Shown here one piece after another: positions 8,951 to 35,826 of a DNA stretch of 64,000 nucleotides. Below the pieces are notes generated by a model. That model did not search any database. It was not told the origin of the DNA and saw only the letters and a program-made list of their open reading frames with translations. Numbering within the stretch: position 1 is the first letter of the stretch; the number at the start of each line of letters is the position of its first letter. Origin of the DNA: Squalus acanthias (Eukaryota); contig CM059432.1 in assembly GCA_030390025.1 (NCBI GenBank), forward strand, positions 62,622,001 through 62,686,000, given 5' to 3'. A program made the translations under genes and the position numbers.

Positions 8951-11900
8951 GAGTGGAGTGGGGGAGTGGAGTGGGGGGGTGGAGTGGGGGGGTGGAGTGG
9001 AGTGGGGGGGTGGAGTGGGGGGGTGGAGTGGAGTGGGGGGGTGGAGTGGGGGGGTGGAGTGGAGTGGGGGGGTGAGTTGGAGTGGGGTGGGGGAGTGGGG
9101 TGGGGGGGTGGAGTGGAGTGGGGGGGTGGAGTGGAGTGGGGGGGTGGGTGGAGTGGAGTGGGGGGGGGGGTGGAGTGGAGTGGGGGGGGGTGGAGTGGAG
9201 TGGAGTGGGGGGGGGGGGTGGAGTGGAGTGGGGGGGGGGGGGTGGAGTGGAGTGGGGGGGGGGGTGGAGTGGAGTGGGGGGGGGGTGGAGTGGAGTGGGG
9301 GGGGGGGGTGGAGTGGAGTGGGGGGGGGTGGAGTGGAGTGGGGGGGGGGGGTGGAGTGGAGTGGGGGGGGGGGGGGTGGAGTGGAGTGGGGGGGGGGGGG
9401 TGGAGTGGAGTGGGGGGGGGGTGGAGTGGAGTGGGGGGGGGGGGTGGAGTGGAGTGGGGGGGGGGGGGTGGAGTGGAGTGGGGGGGGGGGGTGGAGTGGA
9501 GTGGGGGGGGGGGGTGGAGTGGAGTGGGGGGGGGGGGTGGAGTGGAGTGGGGGGGGGGGTGGAGTGGAGTGGGGGGGGGGGGGGTGGAGTGGAGTGGGGG
9601 GGGGGGGGTGGAGTGGAGTGGGGGGGGGGGGGTGGAGTGGAGTGGGGGGGGGGTGGAGTGGGGGGGGGGGGGTGGAGTGGAGTGGGGGGGGGGGGTGGAG
9701 TGGGGGGGGGGAGTGGAGTGGGGGGGGGGGGTGGAGTGGAGTGGGGGGGGGTGGAGTGGAGTGGAGTGGGGGGGGGTGGAGTGGAGTGGGGGGGGGTGGA
9801 GTGGGGTGGGGGGGGGAGTGGGGGGGGGGGAGTGGGGGGGGGGGTGGAGTGGAGTGGAGTGGGGGGGGGTGGAGTGGGGTGGGGGGGGGGGTGGAGTGGG
9901 GTGGGGGGGGGGGGAGTGGGGGGGGGGTGGAGTGGAGTGGGGGGGGGGTGGAGTGGGGTGGGGGGGGGTGTGGGGGGGTGTGGAGTGGGGTGGGGGGGGG
10001 TGTGGAGTGGGGTGGGGGGGGGGTGGAGTGGGGTGGGGGGGGGTGTGGGGTGGGGGGGGTGTGGGGTGGGGGGGGGGGGGGAGTGGGGTGGGGGGGGGGG
10101 TGGAGTGGGGTGGGGGGGGGGGTGGAGTGGGGTGGGGGGGGGGGTGGAGTGGGGTGGGGGGGGGGTGGAGTGGGGTGGGGGGGGGTGGAGTGGGGTGGGG
10201 GGGGGGGTGGAGTGGGGTGGGGGGGGGTGGAGTGGGGGGGGGGTGGAGTGGAGTGGGGGGGTGGAGTGGAGAGGGGGGGTGGAGTGGAGTGGGGGGGGGT
10301 GGAGTGGAGTGGGGGGGGGGTGGAGTGGAGTGGGGGGGGTGGAGTGGAGTGGGGGGGGTGGAGTGGAGTGGGGGGGGTGGAGTGGGGGGGGTGGAGTGGA
10401 GTGGGGGGGGTGGAGTGGAGTGGGGGGGGTGGAGTGGGGGGGGTGGAGTGGAGTGGAGTGGGGGGGTGGAGTGGAGTGGGGGGGTGGAGTGGGGGGGTGG
10501 AGTGGAGTGGGGAGTGGAGTGGGGAGTGGAGTGGGGGGGTGGAGTGGGGGGGTGGAGTGGGGGGGTGGAGTGGAGTGAGGGGGTGGAGTGGAGTGAGGGG
10601 GTGGAGTGGAGTGGGGGGGTGGAGTGGGGGGGTGGAGTGGAGTGGGGGGGTGGAGTGGAGTGGGGGGGGTGGAGTGGGGGGGTGGAGTGGAGTGGGGGGG
10701 TGGAGTGGAGTGGGGGGGGTGGAGTGGAGTGGGGAGTGGAGTGGGGTGGAGTGGGGGGGTGGAGTGGAGTGGGGGAGTGGAGTGGGGGGTGGAGTGGGGG
10801 GGTGGAGGGGTGGAGTGGAGTGTGGGGGGGGTGGGTGAGTGGAGGGGAGTGGGGGTTGGAGTGGGGGTAGAGTGGAATGGGGGGAGTGGAATGGGGAGTG
10901 GAATGGAATGGGGGGGAGTGGAATGGGGGGGTGTGGAATGGGGGGGAGTGGAATGGGGGGGGAGTGGAATGGGGAGTGGAATGGAATGGGGGGGGAGTGG
11001 AATGGGGGGGGAGTGGAATGGGGGGGAGTGGAATGGGGGGGAGTGGAATGGGGGGGGAGTGGAATGGGGAGTGGAATGGAATGGGGGGGGAGTGGAATGG
11101 GGGGGAGTGGAATGGGGGGGGAGTGGAATGGGGAGTGGAACGGGGGAGTGGAGTGGGGGGGAGTGGAATGGGGGGGAGTGGAATGGGGGGGGAGTGGAAT
11201 GTGGGTGGAGTGGAATGGGGGGGAGTGGAATGTGGGTGGAGTGGAATGGGGGGGAGTGGAATGGGGGGGGAGTGGAATGGGGGGGAGTGGAATGGAGGGG
11301 GAGTGGAATGAGGGGGGTGTGAAATGGGGGTGGAGTGGAATGGGGGCGTGGAATGGGGAGTGGAATGGAATGGGGGGAGTGGAATGGGGGGGAGTGAAAT
11401 GGGGTGGAGTGGAATGGGGGGGAGTGGAATGTGGGTGGAGTGGAATGGGGGGGAGTGGAATGTGGGGGGAGTGGAATGGGGGGGAGTGGAATGGGGGGGG
11501 AGTGGAATGGGGGGGAGTGGAATGGAGGGGGAGTGGAATGAGGGGGGTGTGAAATGGGGGTGGAGTGGAATGGGGGCGTGGAATGGGGAGTGGAATGGAA
11601 TGGGGGGAGTGGAATGGGGGGGAGTGAAATGGGGTGGAATGGAATGGGGGAGGGGAGTGGAATGGAATGGGGGGAGTGGAATGGGGGGGAGGGGAGTGGA
11701 ATGGAATGCGGGGAGTGGAATGGGGAGTGGAATGGAATGGGGGGAGTGGAGTGGAGTGGGGGTGGAGTGGAATGGGGGGAGTGGAGTGGGGGGGGAGGGG
11801 AATGGAATGGTGAGGTGGAGTGATGGGGGGTGAGGTGGAGTGGTGTGGGGTGGGGTGTGGGGTGGGGTGGTGGGGGGTGGGGTGTGGGGTGGGGTGGGGG

Positions 11901-12253
11901 GTGGGGGGGTGGGGTGGGGTGGGGTGTGGGGTGGGGTGTGGGGTGGGGGGTGGGGTGGTGTGGTGGGGTGGAGTGATGGGGGGTGAGGTGTGGTGGGGGG
12001 TGGGGTGGTGGGATGGAGTGATGGGGTGGGGTGGAGTGGTGGGGGGTGAGGTGTGGTGGGGGGTGGGGTGGTGGGATGGAGTGATGGGGGTGGAGTGGTG
12101 GGGGGTGAGGTGTGGTGGGGTGGAGTGATGGGGGGTGGGGTGGAGTGGTGGGGGGTGGGGTGGTGGGATGGAGTGATGGGGGTGGGGTGGAGTGGTGTGG
12201 GGTGGGGTGGTGGGGTGGAGTGATGGGGGGTGGGGTGCAGTGGTGGGGGGTGG
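8951..12253 (+). repeat. 3.3-kb G-rich compound tandem array: (GGAGT)n+polyG, then GGAGTGGAAT+polyG, then GGGGT/GGTGT/GATGG
   Basis: Directly visible; almost no C on the + strand; zone changes at ~10870 and ~11810. Confidence 0.97.
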
Positions 12254-24354: not shown

Positions 24355-24945
24355 AGATAGATCAGAGTATTTTCTAAATGGCGAGAAGCTAGGAACTGTG
24401 TATGAGCAGAGAGATTTAGGGGTCCAAGTACAGAAATCACTAAAAGCTAGTGGACAGGTACAAAAATAATTAAAAAGGCTAATGGAATGTTGGTCTTTAT
24501 CTCAAGAGGGCTGGAATACAGAGGGGTGGAAGTTATGTTACAGCCGTACAGAGCTCTGGTTAGACCCCATCTGGAGTGCTGAATTCAGTTCTGGGCATCG
24601 CATCTCAGGAATGGATGCAGTGCAGATTCACCAGAATGATACCGAGCGAAAAGGGTTAAATTATGAGGACAGGTTGCATAGACTAGTCTTGTATTCCCTT
24701 GAATATAAAAGATTAGGATTGAACTAATTAAGATGTTTAAGATGATCAAAGGAGTTGCTAAGGTAGATAGAGAAAAACTATTTCCTCTGGTGGGAGAGTC
24801 TGAGATTGAGAGATTTTTGTTAGGCAAGGGTATTAAGGGTTACGGAACCAATGCGGGTAGATGGAGTTAAGATACAGATCAGCCATGATCTAATTGAATG
24901 GCGGAACAGGCTCGAGGGGTTGAATGGCCTACTGCTATGTCCCAA
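24355..24945 (+). mobile_element. CR1 LINE 3' fragment, degraded and internally deleted
   Basis: KGLNYEDRLHRLVLYSLE and the CR1 3' UTR (GATCAGCCATGATCTAATTGAATGGCGG). Confidence 0.8.
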
Positions 24946-25039
24946 CGTGCTTCACAGGAGTATGATCAGACAAATTTTGACACCAAGAGACATTAGGAGA
25001 TATCAGGACATGTGACCACATGCTTGGTCAAAGAGGTAG

Positions 25040-25233
25040 TGTGGTAACACAATACAGCTTCCTGTGACTCGAACTTTATTGCATCACTTCCTGTGATTAG
25101 TCCAGGATAAATACTGGACTGAGCAGTTGGATCCTGGAGAGGCATAGAGTAAGACCTCTTTTGTATGTAGCACCTTTTTAGTTGATTAAAGCTTACTTTA
25201 AGTTCACCACGCGTAAGGCTCATTCTTACGACA
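25040..25233 (+). repeat. 5' LTR (194 bp)
   Basis: TGTGGTAAC...TTACGACA; TATA-like GATAAATA at 25106 and ATTAAA at 25185; identical to the 3' LTR by eye. Confidence 0.97.
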
Positions 25234-25311
25234 ATTTAATCAACTTTGAAAAACTTCGCACTCAAACTTTTTGGACGAACTCGGAACTAAGGATCCAGGG
25301 AATCACCCATC

Positions 25312-28300
25312 ATGGAAAACATCCTTAAACCATCGCGTCTTGACTTGGACCCAAACACCCCAGCAGCCGGTAAGGTGTGGAAACACTGGTATCGCACGTT
25401 TGACAATTTTCTCGAATATTGCAAGGCTGATGATGACACAAAGTTGCGGATACTCATCAACTGTGTCACTCCGAATGTATTTCAGTATGTTGAGGAATGG
25501 GGCAGTTACGAGGAGGCAATTCGGACGCTTAAAAGACTATATACTAAGACACCGAATGAGGTCTATGCCAGACATCTACTAGCTACAGCCCAACAAGGGC
25601 CGGAGGAATCCATTGATAAATTCCTCCAAGAGCTTCGCAGACTTAGTATGGACTGTAACTTTCAGGCGGCCTCAGCTGAGCTGTACCGTGAAGAAATGAT
25701 CCGTGATGCTTTCATCTGCGGGCTTGCCTCCCCATTTATACGCCAGCGTCTACTGGAAAGTAAGACACTTGAGCTTCAGAGAGCTTATGACATGGCTTGC
25801 TCTCTAGATCTGGCAAAAAGAAATGCAGACCTTTATACAGTGCCCAGACCTCGGTCTGCTGCCTTAACTACAGTCAGGCAATTTAAGAGGCCACAGGTGA
25901 ACTCTATTAGGGAGGACTTTATCCCTGACGATCAATCTGATGACTTCACTGATGAAGAGGATGATGACCCCACTGTGGCAGCCTCTTGGCAATCTAAGAA
26001 ATGCTTCTTTTGTGGTGATGAGTTTCACCCTCGGAAATTCTGCCCTGCTCGCAATGCGTTTTGCAGTCATTGCAACAAAAAGGGTCATTTTGCAAAGGTT
26101 TGCCTATCAAGAGCCTCTACGAGGGCTTATCAAGCTAAGTCCTACCGAACTGCCCCAGTAAGGGCCTATCAAGATGTTCCGGCTAAAATCTATCGTGCTT
26201 CCTCTCGGGTTTTCTCTCGAAGAAACACACCTAGAGTTTCAGCCACTCTTTGTGCAACGACACCAATTACAGCTGCTTGTCCTCAGAACCTATTCCATGC
26301 AGCTACAAAAGCATCAATTAATGGACATACTTTAGATGCCTTAATTGACTCAGGTAGCACTGATAGTTTCATTAGGGAACAGATTGTTGCAGAGTTAAAG
26401 CTACATGTTTTCCCATCGGACCAGGCAATTGCGATGGCTCAGTCATCACTTAATACCAGAATTTCTGGCTTTTGTATGGTTGAAATAACACTTAATGGTC
26501 GCAGGTATCCCTCCACCCGGCTTTCGGTGCTCAAGGACTTATGTAGTGATCTTATCTTAGGGCTGGATTTTCAAAAGCAGCATAAGAAGCTCACCATTGA
26601 GTTCGGCGGATCCAAACCTGAACTCACTATTTCTAATATACGACCTCGATTACCGTTCTGTGCATTGTCAGCAGCTTCACTGGATGAACCCTCACTGTTT
26701 ACCAGTATCCCTCCTCGATGCAAACCGATTATAACAAAGTCACGACGTTTCAGTCAGGAAGACCAGTCTTTTATTGCGGCTGAGATTTCTCGGCTTTTAG
26801 CAGAGGATATCATCGAGCCTTGTTCGTCGCCATGGCGCGCCCAGGTCGTTATTGTTAAGAACCCTCTACAACCTCACAAGAAACGGCTGTGCATTGACTA
26901 TTCACAGACCATCAATCAATATACGGACTTGGACGCATACCCATTGCCGCGCATCGATGATATGGTTAATAAACTGGCTGAGTACACGGTGTTCTCAACA
27001 TATGATCTGAAAAGTGCCTATCATCAGGTACCCTTGAAGGTCTCAGACAAGCAGTATACGGCCTTTGAAGCCAATGGACGGCTGTATCAATTTTGTCGCC
27101 TCCCCTTTGGGGTCACTAATGGAGTGGCTGTCTTCCAGCGAGCAATGGATGACCTGGTCAAACAGGAAGACTTGAAGGATACGTTTCCTTATCTGGACAA
27201 TATTACTGTCGCAGGTCGCAATCAGCGGGAACATGACGCCAATCTCCAACGATTTTGGGATGCACTCCAGCACCGTAATTTGACATTAAATGCGGCTAAA
27301 TCCATTGAGTCACAACCAACCATCAACATCCTTGGCTATTGTGTGGGCAATGGCATCATTAAACCTGACCCTGAAAGGCTTCGCCCACTCCAAGAGCTCC
27401 CGCCACCTAAGAATCCGGCCTCCTTGCGCCGGGCCCTCGGCCTGTTTGCATACTATGCTAAATGGATTCCTAACTACTCGGACCGAATCCAACCTCTACT
27501 GAAGGCCAGCACATTCCCACTAGACACAGCGGCTGTTGCAGCCTTTAACCTCCTGAAAAAACAGTTGGAGAAAGCGGCTCTTCACTCCATCGATGAGAGT
27601 CTTCCTTTTGTTGTTGAGTGTGATGCTTCGGAGGTGGCGATCTCGGCCACTCTGAATCAGGAAGGTCGTCCGGTGGCATTTTTGTCCAGGACTTTTCAAG
27701 GGGCTGAGCTACATTATCCTCCAGTCGAGAAAGAAGCTACAGCCATCATAGAGGCAGTACGGAAGTGGACTCATCTCCTAGCTCGCCAGCACTTTACCTT
27801 AATCACGGACCAGCGATCGGTCGCCTTCATGCTCGATAATCGAAAACGGACCAAAATTAAAAATAATAAAATCCAGCTTTGGCGGCTGGAATTGGCCTCT
27901 TTTGGTTACACCATCCACTATCGACCTGGCAAGGAGAATGTGGCTCCGGATACCCTCACACGAGCATTCTGCTCCGCCATGGCACCCTCTACGCTCATAG
28001 ACATCCATGATGGGTTGTGTCATCCGGGCGTTACTCGCATGCTACACTTCGTGCGGTCCCGAAATCTCCCATTCTCTACCGGGGATGTAAAGAAGATGTG
28101 CTCGGACTGCAGAGTCTGTGCGGAATTGAAACCTCAGTTTTTCCGCCCCTCGGGTGGTATACTCATACATGCGACCCAGCCAATGCAACGGCTTAGCATC
28201 GATTTTAAGGGGCCGTTGCCCTCTTCAACTCGCAACACTTATCTATTGACCATGGTCGATGAGTATTCCCGTTTTCCGTTTGCCTTTCCCTGCCCCAATA

Positions 28301-29268
28301 TGCTGACGACCACGGTTATCAGCTGCCTTGAGCAGGTTTTTGCTTTCTGTGGCATGGCATCCTATGTTCATTCGGATCGGGGCCCTTCTTTTATGTCAGG
28401 AGAACTCAAGGCCTATCTCTCGGAACGGGGTATTGCTGCCAGCAGAACGACGCCTTATCATCCGGTCGGGAATGGGCAAGTCGAGCGTTTTAACGCTATC
28501 ATCTGGAATGCGGTACGTCTGGCTTTGAGATCTCGGGGCCTACCCAACCAGCAATGGGAAGCAGTACTTCCAGACGCATTACACTCCACACGGTCCCTCC
28601 TTTCGACCGCCACAAATACGACGCCTCATGAACGGTTCTTCCGATTTCAGCGTCGCTCATCCTATGGGATATCTCTCCCGTCGTGGCTGACTGCACCGGG
28701 ACCAGTGCTACTCCGAAGATATGTCCGGGCGTCTAAGAATGACCCCCTGGTAGATGAGGTTGAGCTCACTGACGTCAACCCTACCTACGCCTATATTCGG
28801 TATCCTGACGGTCGGGAATCTACCGTGTCATTGCGGGATCTGGCTCCCTGCCCGCCGAAACATAGAGGGACACCAGGGGATGATATTGTACCAGGCACAT
28901 CTCTGGGCTCGCCAGGTGCCTCTCATCACGATCTGGATCTGACGCCGGCTGGTACCTCACTCCAGCGTGCCGACCTGGGGCAGACTGACTATGAGCCCGT
29001 CGGGGCTCGCACGCGCAGCCACGATCCACCCCGTACCATACGCTCGGAAACGGATCTGCCACAGCCCTGCCCGACACCCGTTCGGGCACCAGTACACAGT
29101 CAGGATCGTCCTGACCCCTCACAGAGCGGGCTGGATCACTCGGACTCTGGTCCACGGCCCGCGGCGGGTAAACGGGCTAGGGGCCCTCTACCGCTACGAG
29201 AACCCAAACGGGTGCGGCTCTCCCTCGTCCGGCGGCTACGAAATGGAGGGAGCATCCCGGCCTCCTAA
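25312..29268 (+). CDS. Gypsy gag-pol polyprotein (1318 aa)
   Basis: Two CCHC knuckles (CFFC..H..C, CSHC..H..C), protease LIDSGS, RT (DLKSAYHQ, LPFG, YLDN), RNase H (CDAS, EKE, TDQ), integrase HHCC + D,D35E (IDF, HSDRG, NGQVER); Gypsy domain order. Confidence 0.97.
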   Translation: MENILKPSRLDLDPNTPAAGKVWKHWYRTFDNFLEYCKADDDTKLRILINCVTPNVFQYVEEWGSYEEAIRTLKRLYTKTPNEVYARHLLATAQQGPEESIDKFLQELRRLSMDCNFQAASAELYREEMIRDAFICGLASPFIRQRLLESKTLELQRAYDMACSLDLAKRNADLYTVPRPRSAALTTVRQFKRPQVNSIREDFIPDDQSDDFTDEEDDDPTVAASWQSKKCFFCGDEFHPRKFCPARNAFCSHCNKKGHFAKVCLSRASTRAYQAKSYRTAPVRAYQDVPAKIYRASSRVFSRRNTPRVSATLCATTPITAACPQNLFHAATKASINGHTLDALIDSGSTDSFIREQIVAELKLHVFPSDQAIAMAQSSLNTRISGFCMVEITLNGRRYPSTRLSVLKDLCSDLILGLDFQKQHKKLTIEFGGSKPELTISNIRPRLPFCALSAASLDEPSLFTSIPPRCKPIITKSRRFSQEDQSFIAAEISRLLAEDIIEPCSSPWRAQVVIVKNPLQPHKKRLCIDYSQTINQYTDLDAYPLPRIDDMVNKLAEYTVFSTYDLKSAYHQVPLKVSDKQYTAFEANGRLYQFCRLPFGVTNGVAVFQRAMDDLVKQEDLKDTFPYLDNITVAGRNQREHDANLQRFWDALQHRNLTLNAAKSIESQPTINILGYCVGNGIIKPDPERLRPLQELPPPKNPASLRRALGLFAYYAKWIPNYSDRIQPLLKASTFPLDTAAVAAFNLLKKQLEKAALHSIDESLPFVVECDASEVAISATLNQEGRPVAFLSRTFQGAELHYPPVEKEATAIIEAVRKWTHLLARQHFTLITDQRSVAFMLDNRKRTKIKNNKIQLWRLELASFGYTIHYRPGKENVAPDTLTRAFCSAMAPSTLIDIHDGLCHPGVTRMLHFVRSRNLPFSTGDVKKMCSDCRVCAELKPQFFRPSGGILIHATQPMQRLSIDFKGPLPSSTRNTYLLTMVDEYSRFPFAFPCPNMLTTTVISCLEQVFAFCGMASYVHSDRGPSFMSGELKAYLSERGIAASRTTPYHPVGNGQVERFNAIIWNAVRLALRSRGLPNQQWEAVLPDALHSTRSLLSTATNTTPHERFFRFQRRSSYGISLPSWLTAPGPVLLRRYVRASKNDPLVDEVELTDVNPTYAYIRYPDGRESTVSLRDLAPCPPKHRGTPGDDIVPGTSLGSPGASHHDLDLTPAGTSLQRADLGQTDYEPVGARTRSHDPPRTIRSETDLPQPCPTPVRAPVHSQDRPDPSQSGLDHSDSGPRPAAGKRARGPLPLREPKRVRLSLVRRLRNGGSIPAS

Positions 29269-29286
29269 TCTTTTTGGGGGGGAGAA

Positions 29287-29480
29287 TGTGGTAACACAAT
29301 ACAGCTTCCTGTGACTCGAACTTTATTGCATCACTTCCTGTGATTAGTCCAGGATAAATACTGGACTGAGCAGTTGGATCCTGGAGAGGCATAGAGTAAG
29401 ACCTCTTTTGTATGTAGCACCTTTTTAGTTGATTAAAGCTTACTTTAAGTTCACCACGCGTAAGGCTCATTCTTACGACA
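29287..29480 (+). repeat. 3' LTR (194 bp)
   Basis: Identical to 25040-25233; preceded by the PPT. Confidence 0.97.
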
Positions 29481-29904
29481 GGTAGGTTTTAAGGAGTATC
29501 TTAGAGGAGGAGAGAGAGGCAGAGAGGTGTTGGGAGGAAATTTCAAAGCTCAGAGCCTAGGCAGCTGAAGGCACGGCTGCTAATGGAGGGGCGAAGGAAA
29601 TTGCGGATGCACAAAACGGCAGAATTGGAGGAATGCAGAGTTCTCGGAGGGATGTAGGGCTGGAGGAGATTACAGAGATAGGGAGGGGCGAGGCCATGGA
29701 GGAATTTGAACACGAGGATGAGAATCTTTAATTTGAGGCGTCGCTGGACCGGGAGCCAATGTAGGTCAGTGAGCACAGGGGCGATGGGTGAATGGGATGG
29801 TGCGAGTCAGGATACGGGCAGCAGAGCTTTGGATGAGCTGAAGTTTACTGAGGGTGGAAGATGGAAGGCTGGCCAGGAGAGCATTGGAGTAGTCAATCAC
29901 CCAC

Positions 29905-35319: not shown

Positions 35320-35826
35320 AGTGCACTCTTGGCCGGCCTCACATCTTCCACGCTCCATAAACTTAAGGTCATCCAATAGTCTGCTGCCTGTATCCTAACT
35401 GGTACCAAGTCCCGTTCGCCCATCACCCCTGTGCTCGCTGACCTACATTGGCTCCCGGTTAAGCAACACCTCGATTTTAAAATTCTCATCCTTGTTTTCA
35501 AATCCCTCCGTGATCTCGCCCCTCCCTATCTCTATAACCTCCTCCAGCCCTACAACTCTACGAGATATCTGTGCACCTCCAATTCTGGCCTCTTGCGCAT
35601 CCCCTATTTTAATTGCTCCACCATTGGTCGCCGTGCCTTAAGCTGCCGAGGCCCTAAGCTTTGGAATTCCCGCCCTAAACCTCTCCACCTCTCTTTCCTC
35701 CTTTAAGACGCTCCTTAAAACCTACCTCATCTACCCTAATATTTCCTTATGTAGCTTGGTGTCAAATTTTGTTTGATAATGCTCCTGTGAAGCGCCTTGG
35801 AATATATAAATGCAAATTGTTGTTGT
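35320..35826 (+). mobile_element. L2 LINE 3' end
   Basis: LADLHWLPVKQHLDFKILILVFKSL..LAPPYL; ends in ...ATAAATGCAAA(TTG)n. Confidence 0.85.

Follow-up and report, generated by a model that had tools for sequence, protein, structure and literature searches.

A recently multiplied Ty3/gypsy retrotransposon family with asparagine at the last position of the reverse transcriptase YxDD box

We conclude with considerable confidence that the element at 25040-29480 of the window, by which we mean the whole 64-kb stretch of DNA analysed here, is an intact, recently multiplied Ty3/gypsy retrotransposon, likely copied by its own reverse transcriptase (RT), an enzyme with two catalytic aspartates. Its motif C reads YLDN, and the Asn is fixed in the window family, in essentially every copy. 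A broader reading, to which we give slightly less than an even chance, is that the RT site was rebuilt across a whole clade so that the third carboxylate became optional and the residue could flip between Asp and Asn. The two-Asp form would then drive bursts of thousands of vertebrate copies, and the RNA would serve as its own primer, cleaved where its poly(A) signal ends, with one duplex both priming and hiding the 5′ poly(A) site.

The window element has the following parts.

25040..29480, + strand: full-length env-less Ty3/gypsy LTR retrotransposon, 4,441 bp (LTRs, Pfam, target duplication)
25035..25039, no strand: target-site duplication GGTAG, left copy, 5 bp (flank comparison)
29481..29485, no strand: target-site duplication GGTAG, right copy, 5 bp (flank comparison)
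25040..25233, + strand: 5′ LTR, 194 bp, TG...CA, 100% identical to the 3′ LTR
25106..25113, + strand: putative TATA-like box in the LTR, from the sequence; TATAAATA stands at a comparable place in the LTRs of two sister families
25180..25190, + strand: arm within the LTR that pairs with the primer site and is predicted to give the self-primer end, by a cut after 25190; an ATTAAA poly(A)-like hexamer overlaps it
25235..25245, + strand: primer-site position, 11 nt complementary to 25180-25190; lacks the TGG start that a tRNA 3′-end primer would need
25312..29268, + strand: single Gag-Pol ORF, 1,318 aa, no stop or frameshift (ORF list, translation)
25312..26103, + strand: Gag, two Cys/His knuckles recognised by eye in the translation; without a Pfam match
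26308..26589, + strand: aspartic protease (DSG), Pfam PF13975/PF13650
26749..27411, + strand: RT domain, approximate limits, PF00078; model pLDDT 89
27004..27006, + strand: RT motif A catalytic Asp D565, intact (ORF translation)
27190..27201, + strand: RT motif C, YLDN (D629, N630), Asn codon at 27199-27201 (sequence, alignment to Ty3 RT)
27535..27966, + strand: RNase H domain, approximate limits, D771, E808, D833, D880; PF17917/PF17919
27991..28851, + strand: integrase, zinc-binding region and core, approximate limits; PF17921, PF00665
29276..29286, + strand: polypurine tract, directly 5′ of the 3′ LTR (sequence)
29287..29480, + strand: 3′ LTR, 194 bp (LTR comparison)

The element has the protease-RT-RNase H-integrase order, the TG...CA LTRs, the polypurine tract, the short target duplication and the Ty3-related RT/RNase H of Ty3/gypsy elements. 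A chromodomain on the integrase is a feature of the Tf1/sushi group; no chromodomain and no env are among the Pfam matches of the window ORF (to E 0.01). A preliminary description of this DNA held that the element had just transposed, and the 100% identical 194-bp LTRs together with the 5-bp duplication GGTAG support a recent transposition. Both flanks (24936-25007 and 29480-29797) match one inverted repeat copy 6 kb away (35410-35806) at 81-82%, which shows that an older interspersed repeat was the target of the insertion. At its end (28860-29268) the ORF has a Pro/Arg-rich tail without a Pfam match, and this tail makes the ORF ~100 residues longer than most homologs. Elsewhere in the window, a 3.3-kb G-rich tandem array at 8951-12253 (5-, 16- and 31-base periods) is the source of several long spurious ORFs, and no tRNA gene was found in the 64 kb.

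The second Asp of YxDD is near-invariant in RTs, and textbooks treat the three RT aspartates as invariant. In the window element, TAT CTG GAC AAT at 27190-27201 encodes YLDN, residues 627-630 of the ORF, and this lines up with the YLDD of Ty3 RT in PDB 4OL8, the top PDB sequence match for the window RT/RNase H (E 2e-51). Codons and alignment thus bear out the motif as first described, and the same is true of the intact motif A Asp and of an ORF without stops or frameshifts. Compared with a canonical three-Asp RT, the element retains the motif A Asp and the first Asp of motif C and has YLDN in the place of YxDD. The RNase H acidic residues D771, E808, D833 and D880 are all intact. An AlphaFold model of the RT-RNase H region (mean pLDDT 89) confirms the RT fold, at the level of the fold only; the closest folds are those of CaMV RT and then Ty3 RT (Foldseek rank 2).

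YLDN could be a private mutation, a product of CpG decay or a sequencing error of the window copy, and GAC-AAT is indeed the codon pair expected from CpG deamination of an Asp-Asp pair. The preliminary description had named a private mutation or sequencing error as the finding that would overturn its reading, and the genome (3.7 Gb) speaks against both: 2,136 sites match a 38-nt stretch including the Asn codon exactly. Where the flanks are kept, no copy carries another first codon base, two carry another second base (AGT) and four another third base (two AAC and two AAA), the last being a positive control that degenerate patterns work in the genome search. No Asp-bearing copy of the family was found by these same-flank codon patterns across the genome. 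In four of four public runs, from four organisms, contigs cover the Asn codon and list no other letter, and the exact matches together with these runs rule out sequencing error. Over 58 loci the Asn codon is AAT (39) or AAC (19), and the codon before it is GAT in 31, which excludes CpG decay as its source. With 97 of the best 120 homologs also reading YxDN, the chance that the window copy alone carries a defect is close to nil.

The family is young. Thirty loci from the similarity search, window copy included, are 99.1-100% identical over 3.6 kb, and all have YLDN. We examined 40 whole copies, namely the 20 best matches to the window and the first 20 plus-strand pattern matches on contig 1. 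All 40 fetched copies read YLDN, which is no independent test of the Asn because the pattern behind 20 of them includes the Asn codon and the other 20 were picked by similarity. The ORF is fully open in 17 of the 40. Nine were not scored for LTRs, being truncated or having a partial extra LTR match; among the 31 scored, the 5-bp duplication is present in 30 and the LTRs differ at 0-1 positions in 26. A structural subfamily of seven among the 40 (L173, L174, L176, L181, L184, L186, L189) has the first 40 bases of the LTR matched once more, ~70 bases upstream of the 3′ LTR. In runs X1, X5, X10 and X12, from four organisms, contigs are >99% identical to window 26700-28000. A second LTR variant (25082-25235) with 11-13 differences, arm 25180-25190 being unchanged, is found in all four of the runs X1, X2, X5 and X6.

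The variation among the copies carries a signature of selection. Singleton variants have a pN/pS of 0.58, versus 0.22-0.29 for variants common to several copies, and the nonsynonymous to synonymous counts are 231:128 for singletons versus 77:103 for shared variants (Fisher p 2e-6). Since shared variants have passed through replication and are depleted of amino-acid changes, the ORF is under purifying selection. Such filtering of coding changes is not what one would expect if the family were a passive passenger, copied in trans.

The same genome holds other families of the clade. A degenerate pattern for the motif C of the clade, which misses copies differing at its fixed positions, finds 3,254 Asn matches versus one Asp match, in at least three families. 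The second young family (L121-L150, L199) has a 1,315-aa ORF, 215-bp LTRs and an RT 80% identical to that of the window family, and all 30 of its loci read YLDN. The third YLDN family (L192-L196) is older and mostly broken. The sole Asp match is frameshifted, has no LTR pair in its stretch and is 94-96% identical to this third family; as a candidate Asp helper from within the clade, the pattern search thus yields one broken old copy only. Between the window family and the second young family synonymous sites are saturated, so that no dN/dS ratio is computable; dN is 0.10 in RT, 0.09 in RNase H and 0.11 in integrase.

These data bear on the idea, raised in the preliminary description, that the element was mobilised in trans. 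The Asn enzyme would then be weak or dead, and the family would be copied by the YxDD RT of another element, with its own Gag, protease, RNase H and integrase remaining in use. In favour of such copying, D-to-N abolishes the transposition of both Ty1 and Ty3. However, the window family has no Asp copy, and the one Asp copy found by the clade pattern is broken, a count that concerns the same clade only, as unrelated YxDD gypsy families lie outside the pattern. Between the two Asn families, constraint on the RT matches that on RNase H and integrase, and shared mutations are under purifying selection. In addition, D565 and D629 are conserved in 104 of 105 and 105 of 105 Asn-type homologs, and the whole arrangement would need to be repeated in many hosts. 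Copying in trans is thus very unlikely, and the Asn enzyme is very probably autonomous, as judged from these sequence comparisons.

The Asn extends far beyond this genome. Of the best 120 of 1,382 homolog matches, 97 read YxDN, 19 YxDD and four do not cover the site; named sources of homologs include prawns, a mantis shrimp, a copepod, corals, a whipworm, a catshark and rays, and, from further searches, a sea slug and a fluke. Among 150 representatives (50% clustering), those with at least 44% identity (n=95) divide into 47 DN, 44 DD and 4 other, and all 55 below 44% are DD. A further 119 scored short matches give 94 DN, 19 DD and 6 other, and 86 metagenome and genome loci give 57 DN, 24 DD and 5 other. 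On a 207-tip tree, 16 Asp/Asn changes are needed versus 54 (minimum 45) when the states are shuffled. The tree was built with FastTree from ~220 columns with the motif column left out, and many of its inner branches are weak. Early branches are mostly Asp. Gains number 3-8 with 13-8 losses depending on tie-breaking, such that gains and losses are not separable on the tree. Asp families are nested among the Asn rows, with YLDD in 11/11, 11/11, 5/5 and 7/7 covering members of four clusters, and close natural Asp and Asn families have RTs 65-75% identical.

Asn is therefore the majority state of a cross-phylum clade without being fixed there, with at least 16 switches. The suggestion of a lineage-wide two-Asp RT holds in that Asn prevails across phyla and is fixed in the window family, and falls short in that the clade as a whole keeps both states. 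Likewise, the emphasis on a near-invariant second Asp overstates the rarity of Asn, given the published YVDN of nematode BEL/Pao elements and the switches within the clade. Some invertebrate elements reach up to ~70% RT-RNase H identity with the window element, and horizontal transfer among aquatic animals is possible. No relative of the element was found in the viral contigs searched. Clade members L115-L120 lie inside bacterial genome-bin records and are most likely host contamination.

What allows the enzyme to work with Asn might be sought in residues that change along with it. Among 105 Asn-type and 40 Asp-type homologs no residue tracks Asn across the nested Asp families, and no compensating change was identified; positions 528 and 724 are weakly enriched with Asn, and the strongest raw associations follow the tree. 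D565 is kept in all 40 Asp-type homologs as well, and the RNase H acidic residues are conserved in both types alike. What the clade does have is 44 positions that are near-fixed in its Asp and Asn members and rare in the outgroup. Those in fingers and palm include R509-A510-Q511, S531, T533, E586-A587, G604-V605, T632 and G635, and others lie in RNase H. We propose that D565 and D629 would hold the catalytic metals in the way of D151 and D213, the metal ligands proposed for Ty3 RT (PMC5371799), and that, of what the third residue does, N630 would take over just the part of its carbonyl and hydrogen bonding. An early remodelling of fingers/palm and RNase H across the clade may have made the third carboxylate optional without any Asn-specific partner. 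We give roughly even odds to the remodelled pocket being the cause of the tolerance, as the link is a correlation at the level of the clade.

The second unusual feature is the primer site. The 11 nt at 25235-25245 pair with LTR positions 25180-25190, and the duplex starts one base past the LTR end. The z value is -2.8 for 25170-25260, but -0.7 for 25137-25260. The same 13 nt occupy the primer site in 31 of 31 scored full copies of the window family, and the stem is present in 28 of 28 scored copies of the second young family and is nearly the same in the window, second and third families. Of 27 foreign loci with a repeat pair, whose repeat boundary was set regardless of pairing, 17 have a 10-19 nt complement starting 0-3 nt past the repeat. 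Several of the ten without a stem are contig-end overlaps and not whole LTRs, and four of the ten gave a stem in a boundary-free scan. That scan covered 43 loci, and the stem turned up in the usual setting in 23 of the 35 that are Asn-type and in three of the eight that are Asp-type. Across 17 distinct arm pairs, chosen from stem-positive loci, own arms keep 10.9 of 11 Watson-Crick pairs versus 7.4 with arms swapped between families, and both sides of the pairs have changed at positions 4-9 and 11 (covariation). One fixed tRNA is excluded, as the primer sequence varies freely between families while the pairing is kept. Self-priming is thus the probable mode, as read from pairing and covariation. 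If the mechanism is that of Tf1 and Tj1, the primer end would be freed by RNase H cleavage directly after the arm at 25180-25190.

The arm itself shows a further regularity, since it ends in WTAAA, a poly(A)-like hexamer, in most families. TATA-like boxes lie ~65-100 nt upstream of it, which would place the arm some 40 nt inside the RNA and not at its extreme 5′ end. Accordingly, a longer piece of the 5′ region may act as the primer, and a second effect of the duplex may be to hide the 5′ poly(A) signal. Alternatively, the duplex of LTR and primer site is not the primer at all: it would mask the ATTAAA signal of the 5′ LTR, or the copy of the arm in the 3′ LTR would prime, or the true primer would be another. 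The hexamer-like arm end and its distance from the 5′ extreme, where the arm of Tf1 lies, speak for this alternative. On the other side, the duplex begins one base past the LTR end, exactly at the primer place, where no TGG-type tRNA site exists; its sequence varies between families with pairing kept; and L047 retains the pairing without the hexamer. We consider the alternative unlikely, and masking and priming are not mutually exclusive. A primer made by splicing is disfavoured: the DNA already contains the complement in one piece, and the contigs of four runs list no joint over 24900-25500. In L057, L069, L074, L099, L102 and L105, a pyrimidine-rich tract ending in AG, similar to a splice acceptor, lies ~10-35 nt before the arm; it may be due to chance, or the 5′ end of the RNA may be set by cis- or trans-splicing at this tract.

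The preliminary description proposed that YxDN had co-evolved with the self-complementary primer site. In this account, Asn would be an adaptation to self-priming, for example through a polymerase slowed to the pace at which RNase H cleaves the RNA duplex, and both would have evolved in concert. Both traits do occur in the window family and in most of its relatives, the Ty1 D211N mutant is partly rescued by suppressors in the RNase H domain, and the clade has diagnostic RNase H residues. However, four YxDD loci, L058, L074, L099 and L102, share the stem, and L074 and L099 are among the early-branching Asp rows. Because YxDD members have it too, the stem is a clade trait independent of Asn, and co-evolution is not upheld; the predicted priming mode is older than Asn. 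Whole YLDD families nest among the Asn rows in the four clusters (the nested Asp locus L036 has no LTR pair), and Tf1 and Tj1 self-prime, Tf1 reportedly with YxDD. An adaptation of this kind is quite improbable. In a weaker form, a self-priming background may permit Asn.

More than 2,000 young Asn copies in one genome are strong in vivo evidence that two Asp suffice in the right protein context. The natural Asp and Asn families with 65-75% identical RTs offer matched enzymes with which to ask how the third carboxylate contributes to metal binding, to the release of pyrophosphate and to processivity, a question raised in print by 2005 at the latest (PMC554778). There is a practical side as well: an annotation pipeline that scores YxDN copies as dead would get a large, apparently active clade wrong. 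The YVDN already published for nematode elements makes the finding less surprising. What appears new here is an independent, switching two-Asp RT lineage within Ty3/gypsy, with unusually strong genomic evidence of function. Our literature search, conducted outside Repbase, GyDB and subscription papers, where a prior remark may exist, found no paper on YxDN in Ty3/gypsy, and among works on YVDN, YADN, YMDN, YIDN or YXDN only the two nematode-related ones were relevant.

Among known elements, Cigr-1 resembles the homologs of the window element in its short LTRs and its single ORF, of ~1,210 codons. The window clade may be the Cigr-1 clade, which is a lead only; no homolog match named Cigr is among the matches listed. 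The Cigr-1 clade of Ty3/gypsy is described from Ciona, molluscs and annelids (PMC6238403, PMC8556966), and the searched text of these two papers makes no mention of the RT motif or primer site. Tf1 and Tj1 are described as self-priming LTR retrotransposons (PMC4600332). Like them, the window element has a primer site complementary to its own LTR over at least 11 nt, with no tRNA match and with covariation. Unlike Tf1, it has no chromodomain match, and its arm ends in a poly(A)-like hexamer and lies probably ~40 nt inside the RNA, judging from the TATA-like box.

The Asn itself has counterparts in engineered and natural enzymes. Ty1 RT with D211N is reported to polymerise with kpol down 223-fold and not to transpose, and suppressors in the RNase H domain restore 5-10% (PMC2148107). 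Ty3 RT with D214N is reported as active, with low processivity, and lethal for transposition (PMC5371799). The window enzyme has the same substitution at the same position, and those mutants keep polymerase activity in vitro. Here too the preliminary description overstated how rare the trait is, the Asp at the last position of YxDD being known as the dispensable one in vitro in Ty1 and Ty3. Unlike these mutants, which do not transpose, Asn is the natural state of the expanding window family. Natural YVDN is described for Cer7-Cer12, BEL/Pao elements of C. elegans, whose activity with Asn was stated as undetermined at that time (PMC554778), and for Ancylostoma Atlas virus, an intact BEL/Pao element with identical LTRs (PMC9094657). 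Like these Belpaoviridae, the window family has Asn as the natural, lineage-wide residue at the end of the YxDD box, and the element that carries it is intact, its LTRs identical. Belpaoviridae have a triple Cys-His Gag, a Pao-type RT and, in the nematode group, env, whereas the window element has two Gag knuckles, no env-sized ORF and no Pao or env Pfam match, and its RT is nearest Ty3 among solved structures. Given the different superfamily, the different Gag, the lack of env and the Ty3-nearest RT, the Asn change arose independently of BEL/Pao. Unlike in the nematode elements, moreover, the site switches repeatedly in the window clade, and the window family counts more than 2,000 young copies.
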